A DNA stretch of 60,241 nucleotides, the filler included. It is 7 parts of 7 records of this genome, joined end to end, with 100 filler letters (N's around TTAATTAATTAA, not from the genome) between each part and the next. Parts side by side here need not be neighbours in the genome. Positions count along the whole stretch, not along the records: positions 15,564 to 26,455 come from SRR31156797_13619; 6 more parts are not named here. The stretch is one strand, 5' to 3'. The notes under the pieces are model-generated. The model had not been told where the DNA came from. It ran no database searches and saw nothing but the letters and a program-made list of their open reading frames with translations. The first letter of the stretch is position 1; each line of letters starts with the position of its first letter. This document shows, piece after piece, positions 6,140-26,455 of this stretch. A program made the translations under genes and the position numbers.

Positions 6140-6239
6140 NNNNNNNNNNNNNNNNNNNNNNNNNNNNNNNNNNNNNNNNNNNNTTAATTAATTAANNNNN
6201 NNNNNNNNNNNNNNNNNNNNNNNNNNNNNNNNNNNNNNN
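6140..6239. other. Artificial contig linker; identical ones at 15464-15563, 26456-26555, 36655-36754, 47460-47559, 53033-53132
   Basis: 44 N + TTAATTAATTAA (stops in all six frames) + 44 N; genes are cut at every linker and composition shifts across several. Confidence 0.98.
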
Positions 6240-15563: not shown

Positions 15564-15809
15564 GGGATGAACCTGATTATTAAAGCCATTGAAAAAGCAG
15601 GGCTTAACCGGGTGTTGATTCGCGATGTGCTCACCGATTTAAAAACTTTTCAAAATTATCAGGGGATTACCGGAGAGATTGTTTTTGATTCTTCCTGGAA
15701 CGATGTTGGGGAAATTTTTATGGCAGAAGTAAAAAATGGCAAGTTCGATTTTTTCCCTGCAACTCAAATGTCTGAACGTGGCCATTCTTCAAAAATGGTA
15801 GGATACTAA
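15564..15809 (+). CDS. Type I periplasmic (LIV/ANF-like) binding protein, C-terminal fragment
   Basis: GMNLIIKAI...YQGITGEIVFD pattern, paralogous to the next gene's C-terminus. Confidence 0.7.
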   Translation, partial: GMNLIIKAIEKAGLNRVLIRDVLTDLKTFQNYQGITGEIVFDSSWNDVGEIFMAEVKNGKFDFFPATQMSERGHSSKMVGY

Positions 15810-15865: not shown

Positions 15866-16990
15866 ATGAAATTACTGGATTCAATATATGTGTTTTTTAC
15901 AGTAATTGTTTTAGGAACTTTTAGTTGTGTTTCTGTATTGGCAGAAGAGGTTCAACCCAAAACAGAGCAGGTTATTAAAATTGGATTACTTGTTCCTGAG
16001 AATAATTCAAAAGAGGCCAGATTTGCAGCTCAGATAGCAATAGATGAAGCTAATAAGAAAATTGTTTCGGCGAGTTATTCATTTCAATTACTAACACGAT
16101 CAATGGAAGGGCCGTGGGGAACGGGTTCAAAACAAGCTGTCGATTTAATTTTTAACGAAAAAGTTTGGGCTTTGCTTGGCAGCCACGATGGAAGAAATGC
16201 TCATTTGGTTGAACAGGTAGCTGCTAAAACTCAGGTTCCTTTTGTTTCTGCATGGTCGGGAGATCCTACGCTTTCGCAGGCTTTTGTTCCCTGGTATTTT
16301 AGTTGTGTCCCGAATAATAATCAGCAAACAAAACTTTTGATAAACGAAATTTATCGTGTACGGGAAATGAGGAATATAATTACCATTTCCGACGGAGAGT
16401 ACGATGCAGAAATGGCATTAAAAAGTTTTCTAAATAAATTAGATGAAGAAAGCCTGGAGCATCCAAAGCAACTTTTGTATAAAAAACAGGATTTCGATGT
16501 AGTGCAGCTGGTCGACGAAATTAGAAATAATGCTGGTGATGGTATTGTTTTATTTGGCAATTCGATTGCCTCGGTAAAAATAATTGAAGCGTTAAAAAGG
16601 GCAAATTTAAAACAGCCGGTTTTTGGAATATTATCGGTTATTGATGAAAACCAGAAAGAGCCATTTCATTGGTCAGATTATGAGGGGGTTGTAGTTGTAA
16701 ATCCGGGAAATTGGTTAAATCAAAAAGGAGACCCTTTTAGCATCATATTTGAAAACAAACATGGATGGAAACCGGGAGCTGTTGGCGCTTACGCTTTCGA
16801 TGGAATGAATGTAATTTTAGAAGCTGTTATCAATTCAGGATTTAACCTAAAAAAAATAAAACAAACCCTTGCCGACACAAAATTTAATGGAGTTACCGGC
16901 TTTATTTCTTTTGATAAATTTGGAAACAGAATGGGGGCAAATGGATTAGTTATAATAAAAGATGGTACTCCTCAAACTATTAAAAATTAA
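15866..16990 (+). CDS. Type I periplasmic (branched-chain amino acid/ANF receptor-like) binding protein
   Basis: Signal peptide; IKIGLLVP, AQIAIDEAN, ALLGS, AYAFDG, FNGVTGFISFD. Confidence 0.82.
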   Translation: MKLLDSIYVFFTVIVLGTFSCVSVLAEEVQPKTEQVIKIGLLVPENNSKEARFAAQIAIDEANKKIVSASYSFQLLTRSMEGPWGTGSKQAVDLIFNEKVWALLGSHDGRNAHLVEQVAAKTQVPFVSAWSGDPTLSQAFVPWYFSCVPNNNQQTKLLINEIYRVREMRNIITISDGEYDAEMALKSFLNKLDEESLEHPKQLLYKKQDFDVVQLVDEIRNNAGDGIVLFGNSIASVKIIEALKRANLKQPVFGILSVIDENQKEPFHWSDYEGVVVVNPGNWLNQKGDPFSIIFENKHGWKPGAVGAYAFDGMNVILEAVINSGFNLKKIKQTLADTKFNGVTGFISFDKFGNRMGANGLVIIKDGTPQTIKN

Positions 16991-17188: not shown

Positions 17189-20100
17189 ATGATGAAAAAT
17201 ATTTATATCGTATGTATTGTTGCACTGATAATTGTATCGTTTGGCAGCTGTAACCCATCGGCAGAGAAAACCAAAGAAGATGCTATTAAAATGATGACTG
17301 CCCAGACCTTAGGACTGGCTTATCTTGAGGAGTTTAAATTGGTGGAAGCAGAAGGTGAATTTCTGAAATATATAGAAATGGCACCCGACGATAAACTGGG
17401 ATATGCAAATCTGGGGTTAACATATTTGCGAATGGGAAAGTACCCGGAAGCTGAAGAACAACTTCAGAAAGCCATTAAAATTGATGCAAATGATGCCGAT
17501 ATTAGTTTAATTCTTGCCACTGTTTACGAAATGAACAGTGAACGCGAAAAAGCAATTTCAATTCTTAACGAGGCACTAAAAATTGCACCTGGCCATATAA
17601 AAATTTTGTATTACCTCGCCGATTTATATTCAACCAATTCAGATGAAAAATCATCGGAATTACGAAAAAACTGCATAACGCAACTTGCTGAAAAAGCACC
17701 GGGAAATATTGTTCCACAACTGAGTTTAACCGAAATTTACATAAATAATAACGATGCCGACAAGGCTATTCAGCAGTTGGAAATTATTGCAAAACAATTT
17801 CCTGAATTTCCAAAAGAAGCCATTAATTTTTACGATGAAACACTGGATTTGCTGCGAAAAAATGATATTTCAAATGCAACCGTACAATTTACTTTCTTTC
17901 ATAATTATATGAAGGTTACTTCCCCATACCAGGCAGGTATTGTAGATTTGAAAGGACCGGGCGGCTCGTTAATTGGCTTTCCGTTGATTGTTTATAATCA
18001 GCAACTTTTAAAGCAGGTGGTCGAAAACAAATCGCTGATTGATATAATTAAGTTTACCGAAGCAAGTGTTTCAGCAGGAATTTCTACCGATGCTTCCCGA
18101 TTAAATCATGTAAAAGCGGCCGATTACGATGGCGATGGTGATGTAGATATTTATTATGGAAGTTTCGATTCGGCAACTTCTTCCCATAAACATTTTCTTT
18201 ATAACAACGAAATGGGACGGTTTAGTGATGTCTCTTCTGAGGTTGGAATAAATCACAGCGGTGAGGAAATTTCATCCATTTTTATTGATTACGACAATGA
18301 TGGATTTCTCGATTTGTTTATTGTGAGGGAAGAGGGAGATATATTATACAGGAATGCCGGAGAAAGTAAATTTGAAGATGTTACTGCTGATGCCGGTATT
18401 GGCAGTAAAAGCGGGAGTAACAAAGCGTTGTTTTTCGATTTCGACCAGGATGGAGACTTAGATCTTTTTGAAGCCTGCAATAATAGAAATTTAATGTTCC
18501 GAAATAATGGCGATGGTACTTTTACCGAACAGGCCGAAAAAGCCGGACTCGCAGGAGACGATGAGCAAACAGTGGATGTCGCTCTTGGTGATTTTGACGA
18601 CGACGGTGATGTTGATTTAATTGTTGTGAATAATTCGGGAACGATTTTATATTCAAATCAGCGGCAGGGCGTTTTCAAAGATATTACTGCCGAATGTGGA
18701 TTGGAATTGGTTACTAATGTTAATTCGGTTGACGTGGCCGATTATAATAATGACGGATTTCTTGACCTGTTTTTCACCTCTGACCATTTTGAAAATATCG
18801 GTTTGTACCGAAATCAGGGAGATGGAAGTTTTGTTCCGTTAAATGGGAATAAGAATTTGTTTTCGGCATTACAAAATGTAAAAACTAACGATGTTCGTTT
18901 TGTTGATTTCGATAACGATGGATTTCAGGATGTTTTAATTGCCGGAGAATCTTTAACAGACGGTAACACAGGAATCTTTCTCTTTAATAACGATAGCGTC
19001 GATCATTTTTCAGATGTTTCTTCTTTACTGCCCGATGAATATAAATCGGGAAAACAAATAGATATATTCGATTATAACGATGATGGTGATTTGGACTTTC
19101 TAATTGCAGGTAAAAACGGATTGCTTTTATTACGAAACGACGGTGGTAGCATGAACCATTACCTTAATATGAAATTGGTTGGGCTGAGAACCGGAAGTGC
19201 AAAAAATAATCATTTTGGAATTGGTGCAAAAGTTGAAATGAGAAGCGGCGACCTTTATCAAACGAAAGTTGTTTCAGAACCGGGTATTCATTTCGGATTG
19301 GGACATCGTACAAATGCCGATATTATTCGAATTACCTGGACAAACGGTGTTCCGCAGAATATTTTTCAGCCCGGAGCCGACCAGGCACTGCTTGAAGCTC
19401 AAACATTAAAAGGATCGTGCCCGTTTTTGTATACATGGAATGGAAGTGAATATGTTTTTGCCCGCGATATTATCTGGAGAAGCGCTCTGGGAATGCCTCT
19501 CGGGATAATGGGAGGGACAACAAAATATGGCTTTGCCGATGCTTCTGACGATTATATAAAAATACCGGCAGAATTATTAAAACCCAAAAACGGAAAATAT
19601 TCAATGCAGTTAACTTCCGAACTATGGGAAACCATTTATATCGATGAATTAAACCTGGTTGTTGTCGACCACCCCGATTCAATTGATATTTTTGTTCCTG
19701 AGCAGTTCTCTCCGCCGCCTTTCCCCGGAGATAAAATGTATCAGGTAAAAGATAAAATTACACCTGTTTCTGCTATTGATCAGGATGAAAACGATGTGCT
19801 CTCTTTTATTGCTGAAGATGATGATAAATATTTAGCAGGATTTAATTCCGACAGATACCAGGGAATTACCGAAATGCACAGTTTAATTCTTGACCCAGGT
19901 GATGTGTCTGCAGAAAATGAATTATTTCTTTTTATGAAAGGGTGGATTTTCCCTACCGATGCAAGTATTAATGTTGCGCTTTCTCAGTCTGATGCTTTGC
20001 AATCCAATTCTCCGGTTATTCAGGTTGTAAACAGCAATGGTGAATGGGAAACAGTGGTTAACAATGTTGGTTTTCCAATGGGAAAAGATAAAACTGTAAT

Positions 20101-20737
20101 TACCGATCTTTCAGGTAAATTTCTAACTTCAGATCACCGGGTAAGAATTTTAACAAATATGGAAATCTACTGGGATCACATTTTCTTTTCCAATAGAAAA
20201 ATAAATGCACCGGTGGTAACCACTATCCTCGAACCTGAAATGGCCGATTTGCATTACAGGGGATTTTCACGTACTTACAGAAAAGGTGGCAGATATGGAC
20301 CACACTGGTTCGATTATTACGATGTTGACAAAAATGTACAGTGGCGCGATCTTACAGGTAATTATACGCGTTATGGAGATGTGCAGCCGCTTTTAACTGA
20401 ATCGGACAGTAAATACATTATTTCGAATGCCGGGGATGAAACTTCCATAGAATTTGACACAGAAGCATTACCGGAACTGCAAAATGGCTGGAAGCGTTCA
20501 TTCCTTATTCATAGTGTTGGTTGGGTAAAAGATGGAGATATGAATACTGCATTGGGAAATACAGTGGAGCCACTGCCGTTTCACGGAATGTCGCAATATC
20601 CGCCATCAGAAACTGATGTTTATCCGAATGATACCGATCATCAAAACTATTTAAAAGAATATAATACAAGAATGGTAACATTCGATAATTTAAGAGATGC
20701 AATTAAAAATGGGGATTATAATGAAGCAGAGAACTAG
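17189..20737 (+). CDS. Lipoprotein with TPR repeats, FG-GAP/VCBS propeller, ASPIC/UnbV domain and unknown C-terminal domain
   Basis: Lipobox FGS-C; TPRs (YANLGLTYLRMGKYPEAE); repeated D(Y/F)DxDG.D motifs; IGAKVE..IHFGLG..IRITW; then GSCPFLYTWNG region. Confidence 0.85.
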   Translation: MMKNIYIVCIVALIIVSFGSCNPSAEKTKEDAIKMMTAQTLGLAYLEEFKLVEAEGEFLKYIEMAPDDKLGYANLGLTYLRMGKYPEAEEQLQKAIKIDANDADISLILATVYEMNSEREKAISILNEALKIAPGHIKILYYLADLYSTNSDEKSSELRKNCITQLAEKAPGNIVPQLSLTEIYINNNDADKAIQQLEIIAKQFPEFPKEAINFYDETLDLLRKNDISNATVQFTFFHNYMKVTSPYQAGIVDLKGPGGSLIGFPLIVYNQQLLKQVVENKSLIDIIKFTEASVSAGISTDASRLNHVKAADYDGDGDVDIYYGSFDSATSSHKHFLYNNEMGRFSDVSSEVGINHSGEEISSIFIDYDNDGFLDLFIVREEGDILYRNAGESKFEDVTADAGIGSKSGSNKALFFDFDQDGDLDLFEACNNRNLMFRNNGDGTFTEQAEKAGLAGDDEQTVDVALGDFDDDGDVDLIVVNNSGTILYSNQRQGVFKDITAECGLELVTNVNSVDVADYNNDGFLDLFFTSDHFENIGLYRNQGDGSFVPLNGNKNLFSALQNVKTNDVRFVDFDNDGFQDVLIAGESLTDGNTGIFLFNNDSVDHFSDVSSLLPDEYKSGKQIDIFDYNDDGDLDFLIAGKNGLLLLRNDGGSMNHYLNMKLVGLRTGSAKNNHFGIGAKVEMRSGDLYQTKVVSEPGIHFGLGHRTNADIIRITWTNGVPQNIFQPGADQALLEAQTLKGSCPFLYTWNGSEYVFARDIIWRSALGMPLGIMGGTTKYGFADASDDYIKIPAELLKPKNGKYSMQLTSELWETIYIDELNLVVVDHPDSIDIFVPEQFSPPPFPGDKMYQVKDKITPVSAIDQDENDVLSFIAEDDDKYLAGFNSDRYQGITEMHSLILDPGDVSAENELFLFMKGWIFPTDASINVALSQSDALQSNSPVIQVVNSNGEWETVVNNVGFPMGKDKTVITDLSGKFLTSDHRVRILTNMEIYWDHIFFSNRKINAPVVTTILEPEMADLHYRGFSRTYRKGGRYGPHWFDYYDVDKNVQWRDLTGNYTRYGDVQPLLTESDSKYIISNAGDETSIEFDTEALPELQNGWKRSFLIHSVGWVKDGDMNTALGNTVEPLPFHGMSQYPPSETDVYPNDTDHQNYLKEYNTRMVTFDNLRDAIKNGDYNEAEN

Positions 20738-22385
20738 AATAATTTTTTACAGTTTAATTTTAATGTGTTTGCCGGGGGTAATTTTTGCACAGAAAAGCAA
20801 AGAAGTATTTACCGAAATTAGCAGCAAAGCCGGTATCGATTTTAAATACACTTTTGGCGATGTTCATTACGAAAATATATTGGAAAGCAGTGGTTCGGGA
20901 ATTACCGTTTTTGATTTCAATAACGATGGATTAATGGATATTTACATGATGAACGGAACTTATCTGGAAGGTATTTCTGATTCGGATGGGAAAATATTTG
21001 CCGACACCCGCGATAAATTGTATAAAAATAATGGCGATGGTACTTTCTCCGATGTGTCAGAGGAAGCTGGGGTTGATGATCCAAACTGGAGTATGGCAGC
21101 CGGTGCAATCGATCTCGACAACGATGGATTTCAGGACCTTTTCCTGCTAAATTACGGGCCCAATGTATTCTTTCATAACAATGGCGATGGCACTTTCTCT
21201 GATATAACTGAAACTTTGGGTTTAAGAGGTCCGGAAAAGTTAAATGGATTTACAAAATGGAGTATTGGTGTGTCTTTCTGGGATTATAATTTAGACGGAT
21301 TGCTGGATGCAATGGTTGGCAATTTTCTGGCATTCGACCCTGAATACATTTCTACACAAACTCCTGGAATGATGCCACATCCCTCAGAATATAAAGGTCA
21401 GGCTTCAATGTTATATCAACAAAACTCCGATGGAAAGTTTGTTGATGTAACAAAAGAAAATAAATTGTTCTTCCCCGATTCTAAATGTATGGGATTAACC
21501 GTTTATGATTACGATGATGACGGAGATCTTGATATCTACCAGGCGAATGATCATCAAATGAATTATGTTTTCAAAAACGATAAAGGTATTTATACCGATG
21601 TTGCAGTAATAAGCGGAGTTGCAGCAAATAGTAGGGGAGTAGCAACTGGTTCGATGCATGGAACACTTGGCGATATTGATGGAGATGGATTAATCGATAT
21701 TTTGGTGGGAGACCTGAAATATGGAGCTTTGTATAGAAATTTGGGAAATGGTATTTTTGAAGATATTACAGAAAAAAGCGGTGTGGAAAGTGCTTTCTCA
21801 GGAAAAGGAAGCTGGGGAACAGCACTTTTCGATTACGATAACGATGGCGATTTAGATATTATCTCGGCCAATGGAACGGCAGAAGAATTAATTTTACAAT
21901 ATCCTTTATTGCTGGAGAATGATGGTACAGGGAAATTTGAAGATAAAGGAAAATCACTTGGTTCCTATTTTTCAACAAAACGTTCGGGGCGGGGACTTTC
22001 AATAATCGATTTTAATAACGACGGAAATCTGGATGTTATAATTTCTCATGTAGATTTGGAAGCTACACCGGCTCTTCTGAAAAATAATGGCGGAAACGGA
22101 AATCACTGGCTTGGAATACAACTGAAGGGAAAAAACGGACAGGCTGCTGAAATTGGTGCAAAAATAATACTAACCGTTGCCGGTAAAGAAAGAGTATTTA
22201 TAAACCAATGGACAACAGGTTATCTCTCGAATAGTGAGCCCCGCGTACATATTGGATTGGGTAAAAACAGAAACATCGATCAACTGGAAGTAAACTGGGC
22301 GGATGGTGAAAAAGAAATCTTTGAAAATGTTTCCATCGGCCAATACCAGACAATTCAACAAGGAAGTGGAGTAAGTATAAAATAA
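20721..22385 (+). CDS. CRTAC1-family (FG-GAP + ASPIC/UnbV) secreted protein
   Basis: Probable start at 20721 (MKQRTRII, signal peptide); DFNNDG/DYDNDGD repeats; NHWLGIQLKG..IGAKI..GYLS..RVHIGLG. Confidence 0.88.
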   Translation: MKQRTRIIFYSLILMCLPGVIFAQKSKEVFTEISSKAGIDFKYTFGDVHYENILESSGSGITVFDFNNDGLMDIYMMNGTYLEGISDSDGKIFADTRDKLYKNNGDGTFSDVSEEAGVDDPNWSMAAGAIDLDNDGFQDLFLLNYGPNVFFHNNGDGTFSDITETLGLRGPEKLNGFTKWSIGVSFWDYNLDGLLDAMVGNFLAFDPEYISTQTPGMMPHPSEYKGQASMLYQQNSDGKFVDVTKENKLFFPDSKCMGLTVYDYDDDGDLDIYQANDHQMNYVFKNDKGIYTDVAVISGVAANSRGVATGSMHGTLGDIDGDGLIDILVGDLKYGALYRNLGNGIFEDITEKSGVESAFSGKGSWGTALFDYDNDGDLDIISANGTAEELILQYPLLLENDGTGKFEDKGKSLGSYFSTKRSGRGLSIIDFNNDGNLDVIISHVDLEATPALLKNNGGNGNHWLGIQLKGKNGQAAEIGAKIILTVAGKERVFINQWTTGYLSNSEPRVHIGLGKNRNIDQLEVNWADGEKEIFENVSIGQYQTIQQGSGVSIK

Positions 22386-22464: not shown

Positions 22465-23793
22465 ATGAATTTTCAATATGTGAGTAAGGTGGTGGATCTC
22501 ACCAATCCGGAAAAAAATGTCATTTATAATATGACACATGAAGAAGCAGTAAATATTGTTAAGTCGGGTGACGTTGAGGCAGTAAGGAAAATTGACGGAC
22601 AATTTGCTCTGATTTCGGTAGAGGAAAAAACAATCCGAATGGCAAGGTCTATCGGAAGACCACTGCGTTATTTTATCGCAAAAAGGGCTGCTGGCCCTCA
22701 ACTGGTAATTGCCGAACGTATTGATGTTATTTTTGATTACTTAAAAAAGGAAGGATTGGATGACCAGTTTCATCCTTCGTACAGCAGAATGGTTCCTGCC
22801 CATTATGTAACAAAAATAGAATTACTGGGTTGCCCCGATCCAAATCCGGTATACACACGGTTTTTCGCTCCGCAACGAAATAAATATAAAAAAAGCACTC
22901 CGGAAGAAATTGGCGCTCAGTATATTCGTGCTGTTTATAATGAAATTAAAAAATGGCTTCAGTTTAGGGCTAAATCTGGCCCGATTGGAGTAACATTTTC
23001 TGCCGGGATTGATAGTGGCTCGATATTTATTTTAACCTACCATGCGCTAAAAGAATTAGGCGAAAGTCCTTCAAGATTAAAAGCTTTTACACTTTCTGTT
23101 GATGGAGATGGTGCAGATTTAATGCAGGCCAGGAAATTCCTGGAAGCCCTGAACCTGGAAATGTTTCTGGAACCCATAGAACTTAATTATTCCGATTTAA
23201 ACTGGAAAGATGCTATTAGTGTTGTGGAAGATTATAAACCGTTGGATATTCAGTCGGCAACTATGAACCTGGCATTGTTAAAAGCGGTTAGATCACGCTA
23301 TCCGGAATGGAAATATATTATTGATGGTGATGGAGGCGATGAAAATATGAAGGATTATCCGATTGAAGAAAATCCTGAGTTAACAATCCGCAGTGTATTG
23401 AATAACTTAATGTTGTATCATGAAGGCTGGGGTGTTGAATCAATCAAACATTCATTAACATACTCAGGAGGATTAAGCCGTGGCTATATGCGAACATTCT
23501 CAACATCAGATTTATTAAATTTTGAAGGTTTCAGCCCATACACTTTACCCAATGTTATTGAAATATCAGAAGGAATACCATTTATTAAAATGACCGACTG
23601 GGATCATCAGAAATTATATGATTTGAAAGGAGAAATTGTTTCATGTGGTGTGAAAGCTTTGACAGGAATGGATATGCCTGTTTTTGAGAAAAGACGGTTT
23701 CAGCACGGTGCAACAACTCCAAAAGCTTTTGCCAGCCATTTTCCCGAGGGTGAGAAGCCATACAGAAGGGAATTCCTTTCGAAGTATGATTAA
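22465..23793 (+). CDS. Asparagine-synthetase-like ATP-dependent ligase lacking the glutaminase Cys
   Basis: PP-loop FSAGIDSG, DGDGGDE, EKRRFQ; remnant Ntn segment DGQFA..ARSIGRPLRY; no N-terminal MCG. Confidence 0.8.
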   Translation: MNFQYVSKVVDLTNPEKNVIYNMTHEEAVNIVKSGDVEAVRKIDGQFALISVEEKTIRMARSIGRPLRYFIAKRAAGPQLVIAERIDVIFDYLKKEGLDDQFHPSYSRMVPAHYVTKIELLGCPDPNPVYTRFFAPQRNKYKKSTPEEIGAQYIRAVYNEIKKWLQFRAKSGPIGVTFSAGIDSGSIFILTYHALKELGESPSRLKAFTLSVDGDGADLMQARKFLEALNLEMFLEPIELNYSDLNWKDAISVVEDYKPLDIQSATMNLALLKAVRSRYPEWKYIIDGDGGDENMKDYPIEENPELTIRSVLNNLMLYHEGWGVESIKHSLTYSGGLSRGYMRTFSTSDLLNFEGFSPYTLPNVIEISEGIPFIKMTDWDHQKLYDLKGEIVSCGVKALTGMDMPVFEKRRFQHGATTPKAFASHFPEGEKPYRREFLSKYD

Positions 23794-24736
23794 GAATTCG
23801 GATTATATTATTAATGATAATTGGATTCTGGCAAATCGCGGGAAAAAAAATCGTGTTGATTGGCAAAAACCATATGCCTGGATGGTAGAACAAGAGCGAT
23901 CTTTTTCAGGCGAAATTGTTGATACAGCAACCATATTTTTAACAAACCTGGAATGTCCGTATCATTGCTTGATGTGCGATTTGTGGAAAAACACCACTGA
24001 TGAACCGGTGCCGGCCGGGGCAATTCCCAAACAGATTGAATGGGCTCTGGAACAATTGCCACCTGCCAAACAATTAAAATTGTACAATAGTGGAAGTTTC
24101 TTCGATGAAGGTTCAATAACGGAAAAAGATTATCAAAAAATAGCTTCGCTTTGTGAGAATTTTGAGACTGTAATTGTTGAAAGTCATGCAAAACGAATCA
24201 ATAAAAAATGCCTCCGGTTCAGGGATATGCTTGTTCCTGAACTGGAGGTTGCCATTGGGCTTGAAACAGTTCATCCACAGGTATTAGAAAAGCTGAATAA
24301 GCGAATGACTCTTCACGATTTTCGAAATGCAGTGGAATTCCTTAATTCAAATGAAATCCGTTCAAGAGCATTTATTTTGTTACGGCCTCCGTTTATGTCG
24401 GAAGAAGAAGGAATTGACTGGGCAAAAAAATCAATCGATTATGCATTCGAAGTTGGTGTGGAATGTTGCATTATAATTCCTGTAAGAGGAGGAAACGGCG
24501 TAATGGAAATTTTGCAGGAGAATGGTGATTTTTATCCACCAGACATTAAATCGCTGGAGTCTGTTTTGGATTATGGTATCGGATTAAAGGGCGGTCGTGT
24601 TTTTGCCGATACCTGGGATATTGGATTGTTTTCGAAATGCGATAAATGTGTTGAAACAAGAACCCTTCGGTTAAATTCAATAAACCTGAACCAGAAAATT
24701 ACTGAAAAGGTAAAATGTACCTGCGATAAAAATTAA
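23786..24736 (+). CDS. Radical SAM enzyme, RaSEA/TIGR01210-like
   Basis: CPYHCLMC; KLYNSGSFFD, VIVESH, LEVAIGLET, FILLRPPFMSEEE. ATG at 23786 overlaps the upstream gene's end and is more likely than the ORF-track start at 23684. Confidence 0.82.
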   Translation: MIKNSDYIINDNWILANRGKKNRVDWQKPYAWMVEQERSFSGEIVDTATIFLTNLECPYHCLMCDLWKNTTDEPVPAGAIPKQIEWALEQLPPAKQLKLYNSGSFFDEGSITEKDYQKIASLCENFETVIVESHAKRINKKCLRFRDMLVPELEVAIGLETVHPQVLEKLNKRMTLHDFRNAVEFLNSNEIRSRAFILLRPPFMSEEEGIDWAKKSIDYAFEVGVECCIIIPVRGGNGVMEILQENGDFYPPDIKSLESVLDYGIGLKGGRVFADTWDIGLFSKCDKCVETRTLRLNSINLNQKITEKVKCTCDKN

Positions 24737-24761: not shown

Positions 24762-25682
24762 TCATTCGTTTATTCCAAAGTAGATTCCGGCTTTCCAATC
24801 CAAATCGTTTTCTCCCGAGTGTGGGTCGTTATAAAAAACTTCAATTATTTGTCCTGAAATATTTTTATCTGTTCTTTTTGCTTCTTCGAAAAGCTCGTAC
24901 CAGGCCATATCTGAAATACTGTAATTCCCGTAAAATTCACCTTTAATGGCTTTGGGCATTTTTACTGTTTTTAATTTAATATGCGAGTCTTCCGGCATTA
25001 ATTCAGGGTGTAAAACAGGAAAACAAAAATCAAATTGAATCGTGTCAGACAATGGCTCCCAATCGTTTATCTGAACCAGCGGATCTCCGGATAAGACGAG
25101 TTTATTAGCTTTTACAAACTGGTTTAATTGAAGAACAGTGTTCATCATTTCGTACGCTTTCCCCCGGGCAGTATTTTTTGCAGAAATGTAAACACACGGA
25201 ATCTCGTCGAAGGAATCAGTGCCAACAAAATTATACCTGAAATTTTTAGATAAAGATTCAATTTTGTTTTTTAAAAGTAATGTGTTTTTTGTTGTGCTCT
25301 CTTTAAAAGTGGTTTTAAAAAATGGCACTCTTATGCGGTTGTAAATTTTCCGTTTGTTATCCGAGATTCCAACTTTTACCCGTGTAGCCGAATCATTCTT
25401 TTGTTGAATGTCCCAGTTAAAAACTAAAGTAGTATCATCTAATACTTTTTGGGTTTCCAGATGACTCCACGGATTTTTATTTAAAATGTTGAATTTCTCT
25501 GTTTGAAGCGTTTTTCCACCCCATTCATTCCAATTGTAAATGCTTTGATAAACCACTGCAGGTTGTGCTTTTACCGTGAAATAGATTTTATAATCCCACG
25601 ATTTCAAAAATAAATACCAGGCTAAAAAACAGCCCATTAGTACAATAACAATTATGGTGAACAATCGAAAATTATACTTCAT
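24762..25682 (-). CDS. Membrane-anchored SRPBCC/GyrI-like domain protein
   Basis: N-terminal TM; C-terminal FDFCFPV..FYGNY..IEVFYNDP..WKAGIY. Confidence 0.7.
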   Translation of the reverse strand: MKYNFRLFTIIVIVLMGCFLAWYLFLKSWDYKIYFTVKAQPAVVYQSIYNWNEWGGKTLQTEKFNILNKNPWSHLETQKVLDDTTLVFNWDIQQKNDSATRVKVGISDNKRKIYNRIRVPFFKTTFKESTTKNTLLLKNKIESLSKNFRYNFVGTDSFDEIPCVYISAKNTARGKAYEMMNTVLQLNQFVKANKLVLSGDPLVQINDWEPLSDTIQFDFCFPVLHPELMPEDSHIKLKTVKMPKAIKGEFYGNYSISDMAWYELFEEAKRTDKNISGQIIEVFYNDPHSGENDLDWKAGIYFGINE

Positions 25683-26455
25683 TTTATTATGTCTTCAAAG
25701 TTTGTTAGTTTATTCCAGATTAATTTGCAATTATTTGGAGCAGCAACCAAATACAATTCATTTCCAACAGCAATAATTTCCAGTTCTCTAATTTCTTTTT
25801 GAGTGTAATTTAGGCCTGTTGTATATCCTTCTTTAATTTCACCATCTCCCGAAATTATAGTTCCCGAATTGGAAACAAACCTGCCGTGGTAAGGTGCCAC
25901 TCCTAAAAAGTTTGCCCCGGTTAAAATATCTTTTTCTCCGTCGTTATTGAAATCGAAAATCAGAAAACGGTTTATAGGCGAAATTTGTAATTCTTTTGAA
26001 AATGGTACAAATCGAAATTCATTTCCATTATTTTCGAGGTAGCCTGATTCCAGGGTGTTTACTTCCAGTAATTCAGATTTATTTAATAGCTCACCATCAA
26101 AAACCTGCTCTATTGTTTTTCCTGCATAATCGCGATAATTGATAAATTTATCACGGGTAAGTTTATCTAACTGGCTGTCGAGTTCATCTTTTGAGTTCAC
26201 CGGATAATAAACTCCATTTTTTTCCATTGCCAGAATAGTTTCTATTTGTCCGTTTTTATCGAAATCGTTAACGTACATTTTTAAGGGAAACTTCGGCGAT
26301 GCATGAAATTTGGAATTCAATCCCCAGTTTCCGAGCAGAAAGTCGGTGTCACCATCTTTATCTATATCTGATGGCGAAATCGTTCTCCATAATCCGTTTA
26401 ATTTTTCGGGTAGATATTTTTCGGTAACGTTTTTAAATTTTCCGTTTTCATTTTG
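25679..26455 (-). CDS. VCBS/FG-GAP repeat protein, C-terminal part (5'-truncated)
   Basis: Open from the contig edge: DIDKDGDTDFLLGNWGLNSKF, DFDKNGQ, DFNNDGEKD. Confidence 0.82.
   Translation of the reverse strand, partial: QNENGKFKNVTEKYLPEKLNGLWRTISPSDIDKDGDTDFLLGNWGLNSKFHASPKFPLKMYVNDFDKNGQIETILAMEKNGVYYPVNSKDELDSQLDKLTRDKFINYRDYAGKTIEQVFDGELLNKSELLEVNTLESGYLENNGNEFRFVPFSKELQISPINRFLIFDFNNDGEKDILTGANFLGVAPYHGRFVSNSGTIISGDGEIKEGYTTGLNYTQKEIRELEIIAVGNELYLVAAPNNCKLIWNKLTNFEDIIK

Follow-up and report, generated by a model that had tools for sequence, protein, structure and literature searches.

Organization of the locus

The window analyzed here is a stretch of 60,241 nucleotides, filler included, in which seven contigs are joined by N spacers at about positions 6140, 15464, 26456, 36655, 47460, and 53033; GC content across the contigs runs from 27% to 61%, and they need not derive from a single organism. 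On one of them, a 10.9-kb contig (15564 to 26455), lies the gene studied here, which encodes a radical S-adenosylmethionine (SAM) enzyme of 316 residues (23786 to 24736, plus strand, ATG to TAA). Immediately upstream on the same strand is an open reading frame (ORF) for a 442-residue protein (22465 to 23793) predicted from fold and motifs to be an AsnB-like ATP-dependent amide ligase, and the last 8 nucleotides of the ligase gene are shared with the start of the radical SAM gene. Contigs of one public DNA run, possibly the source sample and not an independent one, span this contig and show both genes free of indels. The comparisons below place the radical SAM enzyme in the clan of the archaeosine enzyme RaSEA, couple it to the ligase, and suggest that its gene probably belongs to a pathway not previously described and unrelated to tRNA.

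Placement of the radical SAM enzyme in the RaSEA clan

The predicted protein has the traits of the radical SAM superfamily, namely, a three-cysteine cluster motif (C57-x3-C61-x2-C64, 23954 to 23977, plus strand), invariant in 73/73 family rows and presumably the ligand of a [4Fe-4S] cluster with SAM, together with barrel motifs; the superfamily domain PF04055 was matched beneath its gathering score of 29.5 (E = 3.6e-4, 21.2 bits). The original prediction had recognized a RaSEA-like enzyme from short blocks, and every motif that it quoted is present in the translation: the cluster motif, S102GSFFD, V131ES, E154VAIGLET, L198LRPPFMSE, C285DKC, and C311TC. Hidden Markov model searches and profile and tree comparisons likewise identified RaSEA as the closest named family. 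TIGR01210 was the top NCBIfam match (E = 2.7e-33; residues 36 to 314 on profile positions 4 to 296 of 313), at 115.5 bits under a curated cutoff of 212.15. The second NCBIfam match, MnmL/YtqA (TIGR01212), was weak (16.9 bits, E = 0.0026; cutoff, 180). Profile comparison with a RaSEA-like family gave a 99.8% match. Searches of PDB sequences with the protein and its profile returned nothing significant, the profile search giving weak Elp3 matches (E = 0.29 to 0.56).

At least 552 matches to the radical SAM enzyme were confirmed. Among the genome matches listed, the nearest, 81% identical, came from a Bacteroidetes metagenome-assembled genome (MAG); the titles of the best 80 nearly all named Bacteroidota; the nearest Atlas clusters were mostly from Acidobacteriota, Planctomycetota, and Bacteroidota. 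No relative of either family tested was found on viral contigs.

For comparison, we assembled 12 proteins scoring 306 to 388 bits on TIGR01210, of which one belongs to a cluster named RaSEA (Promethearchaeota archaeon) and the rest are unnamed, none of the 12 having been biochemically tested. They share with the window enzyme the three cluster cysteines, Q83, K98, G103, F105, D107, E132, G158-L-E160, N171-K172, P201, P232, C285, C288, Q303, C311, and C313. The last four cysteines form the C-terminal site C285xxC288 ... C311xC313 (24638 to 24724, plus strand), which the original prediction regarded as extra. They are not, since the CxxC...CxC pattern occurs in all 12 high-scoring RaSEA proteins; in its strict form it is found in 46 of the 73 family rows. 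To judge from these sequences, it is probably a site for zinc or another metal. The spacing of the first two cluster cysteines sets the families apart (x3 in 73/73 family rows, x7-9 in 12/12 RaSEA), and the window enzyme's own, pair-type family has invariant residues of its own (W67, Y100, D275, and W277).

A quick IQ-TREE search on 56 chosen rows (20 pair-type, 12 RaSEA, and 24 other bacterial RaSEA-like), midpoint rooted and with no outgroup, placed the pair-type rows on one side of a long branch (Shimodaira-Hasegawa-like approximate likelihood ratio test, 100), apart from all RaSEA and RaSEA-like rows. The other bacterial RaSEA-like families, which score 173 to 244 bits on TIGR01210, fell on the RaSEA side. 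Clustering with an unrelated radical SAM family was not seen. These alignments indicate that the enzyme is inside the RaSEA clan but is not RaSEA, and that it represents the most distant clan branch among those compared.

A partner ligase with an AsnB-like fold

The upstream ORF matched PF00733 (E = 4e-10) and carries a PP-loop (F178SAGIDS), an invariant G122CPDP, a D287GDGGDEN motif, and K409, which we take to be the catalytic lysine of AsnB. The N-terminal cysteine of a glutaminase is missing. In an alignment, 69 ligase rows are 41 to 90% identical to the window ligase. A ligase profile retrieved only asparagine synthetases from PDB (E = 2e-5), and the protein scored far under the cutoff of TIGR01536 (35.3 versus 267 bits). 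Its AlphaFold model (predicted local distance difference test score [pLDDT], 88.8) matched two enzymes equally well, beta-lactam synthetase and asparagine synthetase (Z = 24 to 25; root mean square deviation, 3.5 to 4.0; 360 to 385 residues), CarA at Z = 21, and other PP-loop enzymes (TilS/MesJ-like) at a Z of about 10. The synthetase fold, PP-loop, and GxGxDE motif are those of acyl-adenylate ligases with the AsnB fold. No clavam or carbapenem cluster genes were present among the recurring neighbors. From model and motifs, we firmly infer that the protein is an ATP-dependent amide ligase needing an amine other than glutamine-derived ammonia. A hydrophobic signal peptide was not seen at the N terminus of either the ligase or the radical SAM enzyme.

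Coupling of ligase and radical SAM enzyme

The original prediction had paired the enzyme with an ATP-dependent ligase, and the comparison of loci bears this out. The ligase adjoins the radical SAM gene in 79/80 close genome loci, the remaining one being split by a 9.6-kb insert, and of 79 related ligase ORFs, 76 have an ATG at the same overlap position. Two genome samples were searched: a phylum sample of 301 evenly sampled genomes from the phylum of genome G001, G001 included, and a family sample of 151 genomes from the family of the closest relative. At the phylum-sample loci, the ligase is adjacent in 13/15, and two have an insert of about 2 kb; it is also adjacent in 65/80 distant metagenome loci, 10 others being cut by contig ends. 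The ligase profile found 17/301 phylum-sample genomes, and the pair-type radical SAM gene lies in the same 17 (16 whole, one as a contig-edge fragment). Nor did the comparison point to an enzyme acting independently of the ligase. Co-occurrence gave hypergeometric values of 1e-24 and 2e-9, but these take no account of kinship and carry no weight here; identity correlations of 0.73 to 0.78 are such as shared descent gives. The enzyme is almost certainly coupled functionally to the ligase.

Fusions were also encountered. Those of ligase and radical SAM enzyme (P0153 to P0155) and those of radical SAM enzyme and CRTAC1 (P0157, P0158, and P0128, with a signal peptide inside) have single members each, read like frameshift or read-through artifacts, and were set aside. 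A clean-looking fusion of radical SAM enzyme and halogenase (P0156; 846 residues, one member) is not used as proof.

Association with the exported protein BIG

Upstream of the pair are two genes for proteins with hydrophobic N termini: a large exported lipoprotein of 1,182 residues, here called BIG (17189 to 20737, plus strand), with tetratricopeptide repeats, an FG-GAP propeller, an ASPIC/UnbV domain, and a C-terminal region, and an exported CRTAC1-like protein with an FG-GAP propeller and an ASPIC/UnbV domain (20697 to 22385, plus strand; likely start, 20721). The C-terminal region of BIG, about 445 residues long, belongs to no Pfam family and has no sequence match in PDB. It was matched strongly in 19/301 phylum-sample genomes, including all 17 that bear the pair and mostly far from it; in the other two, G289 and G305, BIG retains an intact KGSCP motif and the pair was absent in our searches. 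In these two genomes (loci L116 and L118), the halogenase and RnfD-like genes described below were likewise not found. In the family sample, the ligase, the BIG region, and a close hydrazine-synthase-like heme protein mark the same 6/151 genomes, 12 others having only distant heme paralogs (26 to 31% identity). This strict link to BIG had been missed by the original prediction. One genome, G205 (L113), has two BIG copies and both of the accessory modules described below, the heme operon and the halogenase trio.

Two motifs, L-K-G-S-C-P and W-x-K-D-G-D-x-N-T, are invariant in 64/64 rows of the C-terminal region. The first, as QxLKGSCP (Q738 to P745; 19400 to 19423, plus strand), stands at the start of that region and is, from its conservation, a candidate modification or cofactor site. 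In the BIG model (pLDDT, 79.5), LKGSCP and KDGDxNT lie partly in loops under pLDDT 50. The C-terminal region showed similarity only to a galactose-binding-like sandwich over about residues 200 to 355, at middling Z scores of 8 to 9.7, and a new fold is not implied.

Exchange of accessory modules

Within the window's lineage, the operon runs from a CRTAC1-like gene through those for a hydrazine synthase (HZS) alpha-like protein, an HZS-beta/gamma-like cytochrome c, a propeller protein, and a Rid/FkbO-like protein, which is common in these operons, to a binding protein, often a DAHP synthase, a further binding protein, BIG, a CRTAC1-like protein, the ligase, and the radical SAM enzyme. The window contig opens inside the first of these binding-protein genes, and the hydrazine-synthase-like heme genes of relatives are not on it. 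What remains of that gene, truncated where the contig begins, is its 3' end (15564 to 15809, plus strand), followed by the gene for the other periplasmic binding protein of the operon (15866 to 16990, plus strand; Peripla_BP_6/ANF_receptor). The DAHP synthase lies between both binding-protein genes in 39 of the 45 loci holding both. Beyond the pair and convergent with the operon (24762 to 26320, minus strand) are a 306-residue ORF with no Pfam match and a further FG-GAP gene, of which the 3' end is present; FG-GAP proteins of about 1,100 residues often border the operon in relatives.

The heme protein was found in 10/10 genomes of the window's lineage (G005 supplied the query), and neither a halogenase nor an RnfD/NQR2-like membrane protein was found in any of these 10. 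The other 16 pair-bearing phylum-sample genomes have the halogenase (whole in 15, a fragment in one), with the membrane protein in 12 and the heme protein in 1. At 49 of 80 metagenome loci, ligase, radical SAM, and halogenase genes are adjacent in that order, and this trio often faces CRTAC1, membrane protein, CRTAC1, and BIG genes. The halogenase-like flavoprotein is closest to PltM (E = 5e-77) and tetracycline 7-halogenase (6e-74), with the lysine motif aligned. We had considered a QhpG/LodB-type quinocofactor maturase for it and dropped the idea, the match to PltM standing against 2e-7 for the Trp dihydroxylase 7ctq. The CRTAC1/UnbV and RnfD/NQR2-like proteins presumably resemble enediyne E4/E5, a likeness that we draw from PF07593 and PF03116. 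The heme and halogenase modules thus swap near-exclusively around a fixed core of pair and BIG. A search for a small precursor of a ribosomally synthesized and posttranslationally modified peptide, in which 4,041 small ORFs were clustered, gave top clusters (7 loci or fewer) whose members shadowed larger genes; a precursor that is divergent or distant may still exist.

Archaeosine and tRNA modification

The original prediction cast the enzyme as part of the archaeosine pathway and saw no ArcS or TGT partner. Since the window consists of separate contigs, absence from it is uninformative and relatives had to be tested, so all absence tests were made in related genomes. There, too, the partners were not found: arcTGT above its cutoff and the ArcS domain PF17884 each occurred in 0/5 relatives, and searches for PF17884 were positive in three euryarchaea used as controls. 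The proposed check for queC had a mixed outcome, in that QueC occurs in G004, the closest relative, but was not found in G001, whose genome is a single chromosome, and was found in 11/26 pair-bearing genomes overall, which indicates that a preQ0 supply is not required by the pair. RaSEA is the best family match over almost the full length, and an AsnB-like protein replacing ArcS in true 7-deazaguanine chemistry might be imagined on that ground; however, with a score below the TIGR01210 cutoff, a separate branch, no archaeosine partners found in the five relatives, and so patchy a QueC, this version has only a very slight chance of being correct. We therefore abandon the archaeosine-pathway assignment, such a role being very unlikely for the radical SAM enzyme.

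Some other modification of tRNA or nucleic acid is improbable as well. The TIGR01210 match, the weak TIGR01212 match, and the weak Elp3 matches in PDB would suit it, RaSEA, MnmL, and Elp3 all acting on tRNA, and PP-loop ATPases include tRNA enzymes. Yet the pair is patchy (6/151 in the family sample) and strictly tied to exported propeller proteins and to heme proteins or a halogenase, the ligase has the AsnB fold (Z = 24) and not a TilS/MesJ-like one (Z = 10), and NCBIfam and Pfam scans showed no RNA-binding domain in either enzyme. The pair is very probably not directed at tRNA.

A proposed ligation and radical cleavage module

Homology, coupling, the ligase fold, co-occurrence, and the module swap were observed; the chemical steps that follow are our proposal. 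By its fold and motifs, the ligase would use ATP to adenylate a carboxylate and, lacking a glutaminase, would couple it to an amine taken up at its own site, with an amino acid (lysine, for instance) as the probable donor. The second step, modeled on RaSEA and MnmL, would be abstraction by the radical SAM enzyme of a hydrogen next to the new nitrogen. Cleavage of the C-N bond would then keep the nitrogen with the acceptor and set the carbon skeleton of the donor free; RaSEA releases piperideine-6-carboxylate. Removal of an amino-acid adduct from a nitrogen by MnmL agrees with the earlier idea of ligating an amine donor and then cleaving a C-N bond. The acceptor would most likely be a small molecule, probably aromatic, and the exported BIG/CRTAC1 propeller proteins would use the product or be the place where it is completed, a direction of the link that we presume. 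Partner modules would differ by lineage, with hydrazine-synthase-like heme proteins here and a PltM-like halogenase with an RnfD/NQR2-like membrane protein elsewhere. We put the probability of the whole, a two-enzyme cytoplasmic module acting on a small acid by ligation and then radical C-N cleavage, with a product serving exported proteins, at about 0.4. As separate parts, C-N cleavage by the radical SAM enzyme is mildly favored by analogy, and a small-molecule rather than a protein acceptor seems rather likely: the relationship of the third gene to PltM and tetracycline 7-halogenase, the DAHP synthase, and the Rid/FkbO-like gene are small-molecule signs, and BIG without the pair in 2/19 genomes is what the user of an importable molecule could show.

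Several observations weigh against this proposal. The MnmL match is weak, and identity to the 12 RaSEA proteins is just 23 to 25%. The sequence W-L-W-S is present in 12/12 RaSEA and 0/73 pair-type rows; the RaSEA-fixed E110, S133-R134, R167, K200, E206, and N231/N234/Q236 are replaced, as is the H-N ahead of the cysteine site, and E-S-R has become E-x-H. With so many fixed residues replaced, the reaction may have changed. Five of the 80 distant metagenome loci have no adjacent ligase, and the genome samples behind our counts include kin and incomplete MAGs. The DAHP synthase is optional, missing in 6/45 loci and, at that position, in the window. Finally, no precursor-supply gene is common to the heme and halogenase contexts, and a single fixed ligase difference separates them (85% threshold, 29 versus 25 rows), two facts that would equally suit a shared protein substrate.

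The replaced residues give some substance to a model, doubtful though we consider it, in which the ligase makes an amide or lactam and the radical enzyme forms a ring, cross-links, or rearranges with no C-N cut, the amine lying within the ligase's own substrate as with beta-lactam synthetase or lasso cyclase. At the likely substrate face, most residues fixed in RaSEA have been replaced, and W67, Y100, D275, and W277 are invariants peculiar to the family; the tree branch is long and separate, the ligase fold ties with beta-lactam synthetase, and radical SAM subfamilies often switch reaction. Against it stand the retained K98, Q83, E132, E160, N171-K172, and four-cysteine site, and the fact that both characterized relatives with matches are N-dealkylating and act after an amino-acid-adding enzyme. 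A shared protein substrate, for its part, is the premise of a maturase model, which we regard as still more doubtful: the pair would modify BIG before export and build a protein-bound cofactor at the invariant K741-G-S-C744, for example, by acylation or isopeptide linkage of Lys741 followed by cleavage to an aldehyde. Anaerobic sulfatase maturases and QhpD, which act on exported enzymes, are precedents. The pair implies BIG in 17/17 phylum-sample and 6/6 family-sample genomes, often at a chromosomal distance; accessory modules exchange while pair and BIG remain, with the one fixed ligase difference; invariant Lys, Ser, and Cys and the KDGDxNT motif lie in low-confidence model loops; and no small precursor ORF was found. 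But BIG keeps an intact motif in two genomes, G289 and G305, in which searches for ligase, radical SAM enzyme, and halogenase found nothing, the halogenase is nearest free-phenol enzymes and far above QhpG-type protein hydroxylases, and low-pLDDT loops are common for other reasons. We favor the small-acid module of ligation and C-N cleavage.

A bolder version, which we offer as speculation, has the pair building a novel cofactor for a widespread family of exported propeller enzymes, either protein bound at Lys-Gly-Ser-Cys or diffusible and pyrroloquinoline quinone-like. In this no less conjectural scheme, the cofactor would arise when an amide is formed at the expense of ATP and a C-N bond is then cut by radical chemistry, with interchangeable heme and halogenase modules. 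If this is true, bacterial CRTAC1/UnbV proteins beyond enediyne clusters would gain their first function, as would the non-anammox relatives of hydrazine synthase.

Significance and other bacterial RaSEA-like genes

To our knowledge, RaSEA-clan chemistry is known only from tRNA. With at least several hundred bacterial genomes bearing it, the pair would carry this chemistry into small-molecule or protein-cofactor biosynthesis and would show a new route to amide nitrogen without glutamine. The co-occurrence profile offers a handle on CRTAC1/UnbV propellers, non-anammox hydrazine synthase relatives, and the orphan PltM-like halogenase, and cultured Maribacter strains carry the operon (L025 and L047), which makes it directly testable. 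We found no description of the pair or the operon in the literature searched, on which subscription papers and preprint supplements beyond reach may bear.

Other RaSEA-like genes were seen in bacteria. A second family (P0159 to P0278; L087:9117-10352, genome G134) has proteins of about 410 residues that score 193 to 219 bits, have a Cx7Cx2C motif, and are nearer RaSEA; its gene in L087 comes after an ORF with no Pfam or PDB match, which looks ATP-grasp-like and was not used. On a Bacillus thuringiensis plasmid (NZ_CP009349.1; L124:4920-9110), a RaSEA-like gene (194.5 bits) lies two genes past an annotated asnB in a type II polyketide synthase-like cluster with ABC exporters, possibly an independent AsnB and RaSEA-like pairing. 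Another (173 bits) heads a cluster for a P450, serine hydroxymethyltransferase, glycosyltransferase, and carbamoyltransferase on the Streptomyces plasmid pFRL5 (L125:7983-14641), and one on Clostridium acetobutylicum pSOL1 is near-solitary (L123:7947-9098; 198 bits). Bacterial pathways have acquired RaSEA-like enzymes several times.

Comparison with known systems

The closest known system is ArcS-RaSEA of Euryarchaeota. There, ArcS appends lysine to preQ0, after which RaSEA, bound in a complex with ArcS, converts preQ0-Lys to archaeosine (G+) (PMC11298593; PMC7694415). The window enzyme shares with RaSEA its full-length homology, SAM-barrel core residues, and C-terminal four-cysteine site, and in both systems the radical SAM gene is paired with an enzyme that has no ammonia source of its own. 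The two differ in the cluster motif (Cx3Cx2C here, Cx7-9Cx2C there), in profile score (115.5 bits versus 306 to 388 in the RaSEA-like archaeal-type proteins), in the partner (an AsnB-fold ATP ligase versus the TGT-fold ArcS), and in the tie to exported propeller proteins seen here. MnmEG-MnmL (YtqA/YhcC) works along similar lines: after attachment of an amino acid, its carbon skeleton is taken off by the radical SAM enzyme, MnmL/YhcC converting cmnm5s2U to nm5s2U (bioRxiv 10.64898/2026.05.18.725915). That system acts on tRNA U34 and has no ligase of this fold, and the profile match to MnmL is weak.

The ligase has its whole-chain fold, PP-loop, and GxGxDE motif in common with asparagine synthetase B, beta-lactam synthetase, and CarA, and like beta-lactam synthetase it has no glutaminase cysteine. 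Identity to these enzymes is 10 to 18%, and, unlike in the AsnB-type relatives, its N-terminal domain begins about 37 residues into the N-terminal nucleophile hydrolase (Ntn) fold; its own invariant motifs GCPDP and HSLTYSGGLSR and its coupling to a radical SAM enzyme also set it apart. Among accessory proteins, the alpha-like and beta/gamma-like heme-propeller proteins of relatives' operons recall anammox hydrazine synthase (NF052342, 245 bits; NF052339, 96 bits) at scores far under the cutoffs of 1250 and 800, and, unlike that enzyme, they occur in Bacteroidota and are substituted by a halogenase module in other lineages. The third gene of those lineages, not found in the window's, aligns with PltM and tetracycline 7-halogenase across the CG-K-GF catalytic-lysine region and has WxWxLR where these have WxWxIP.

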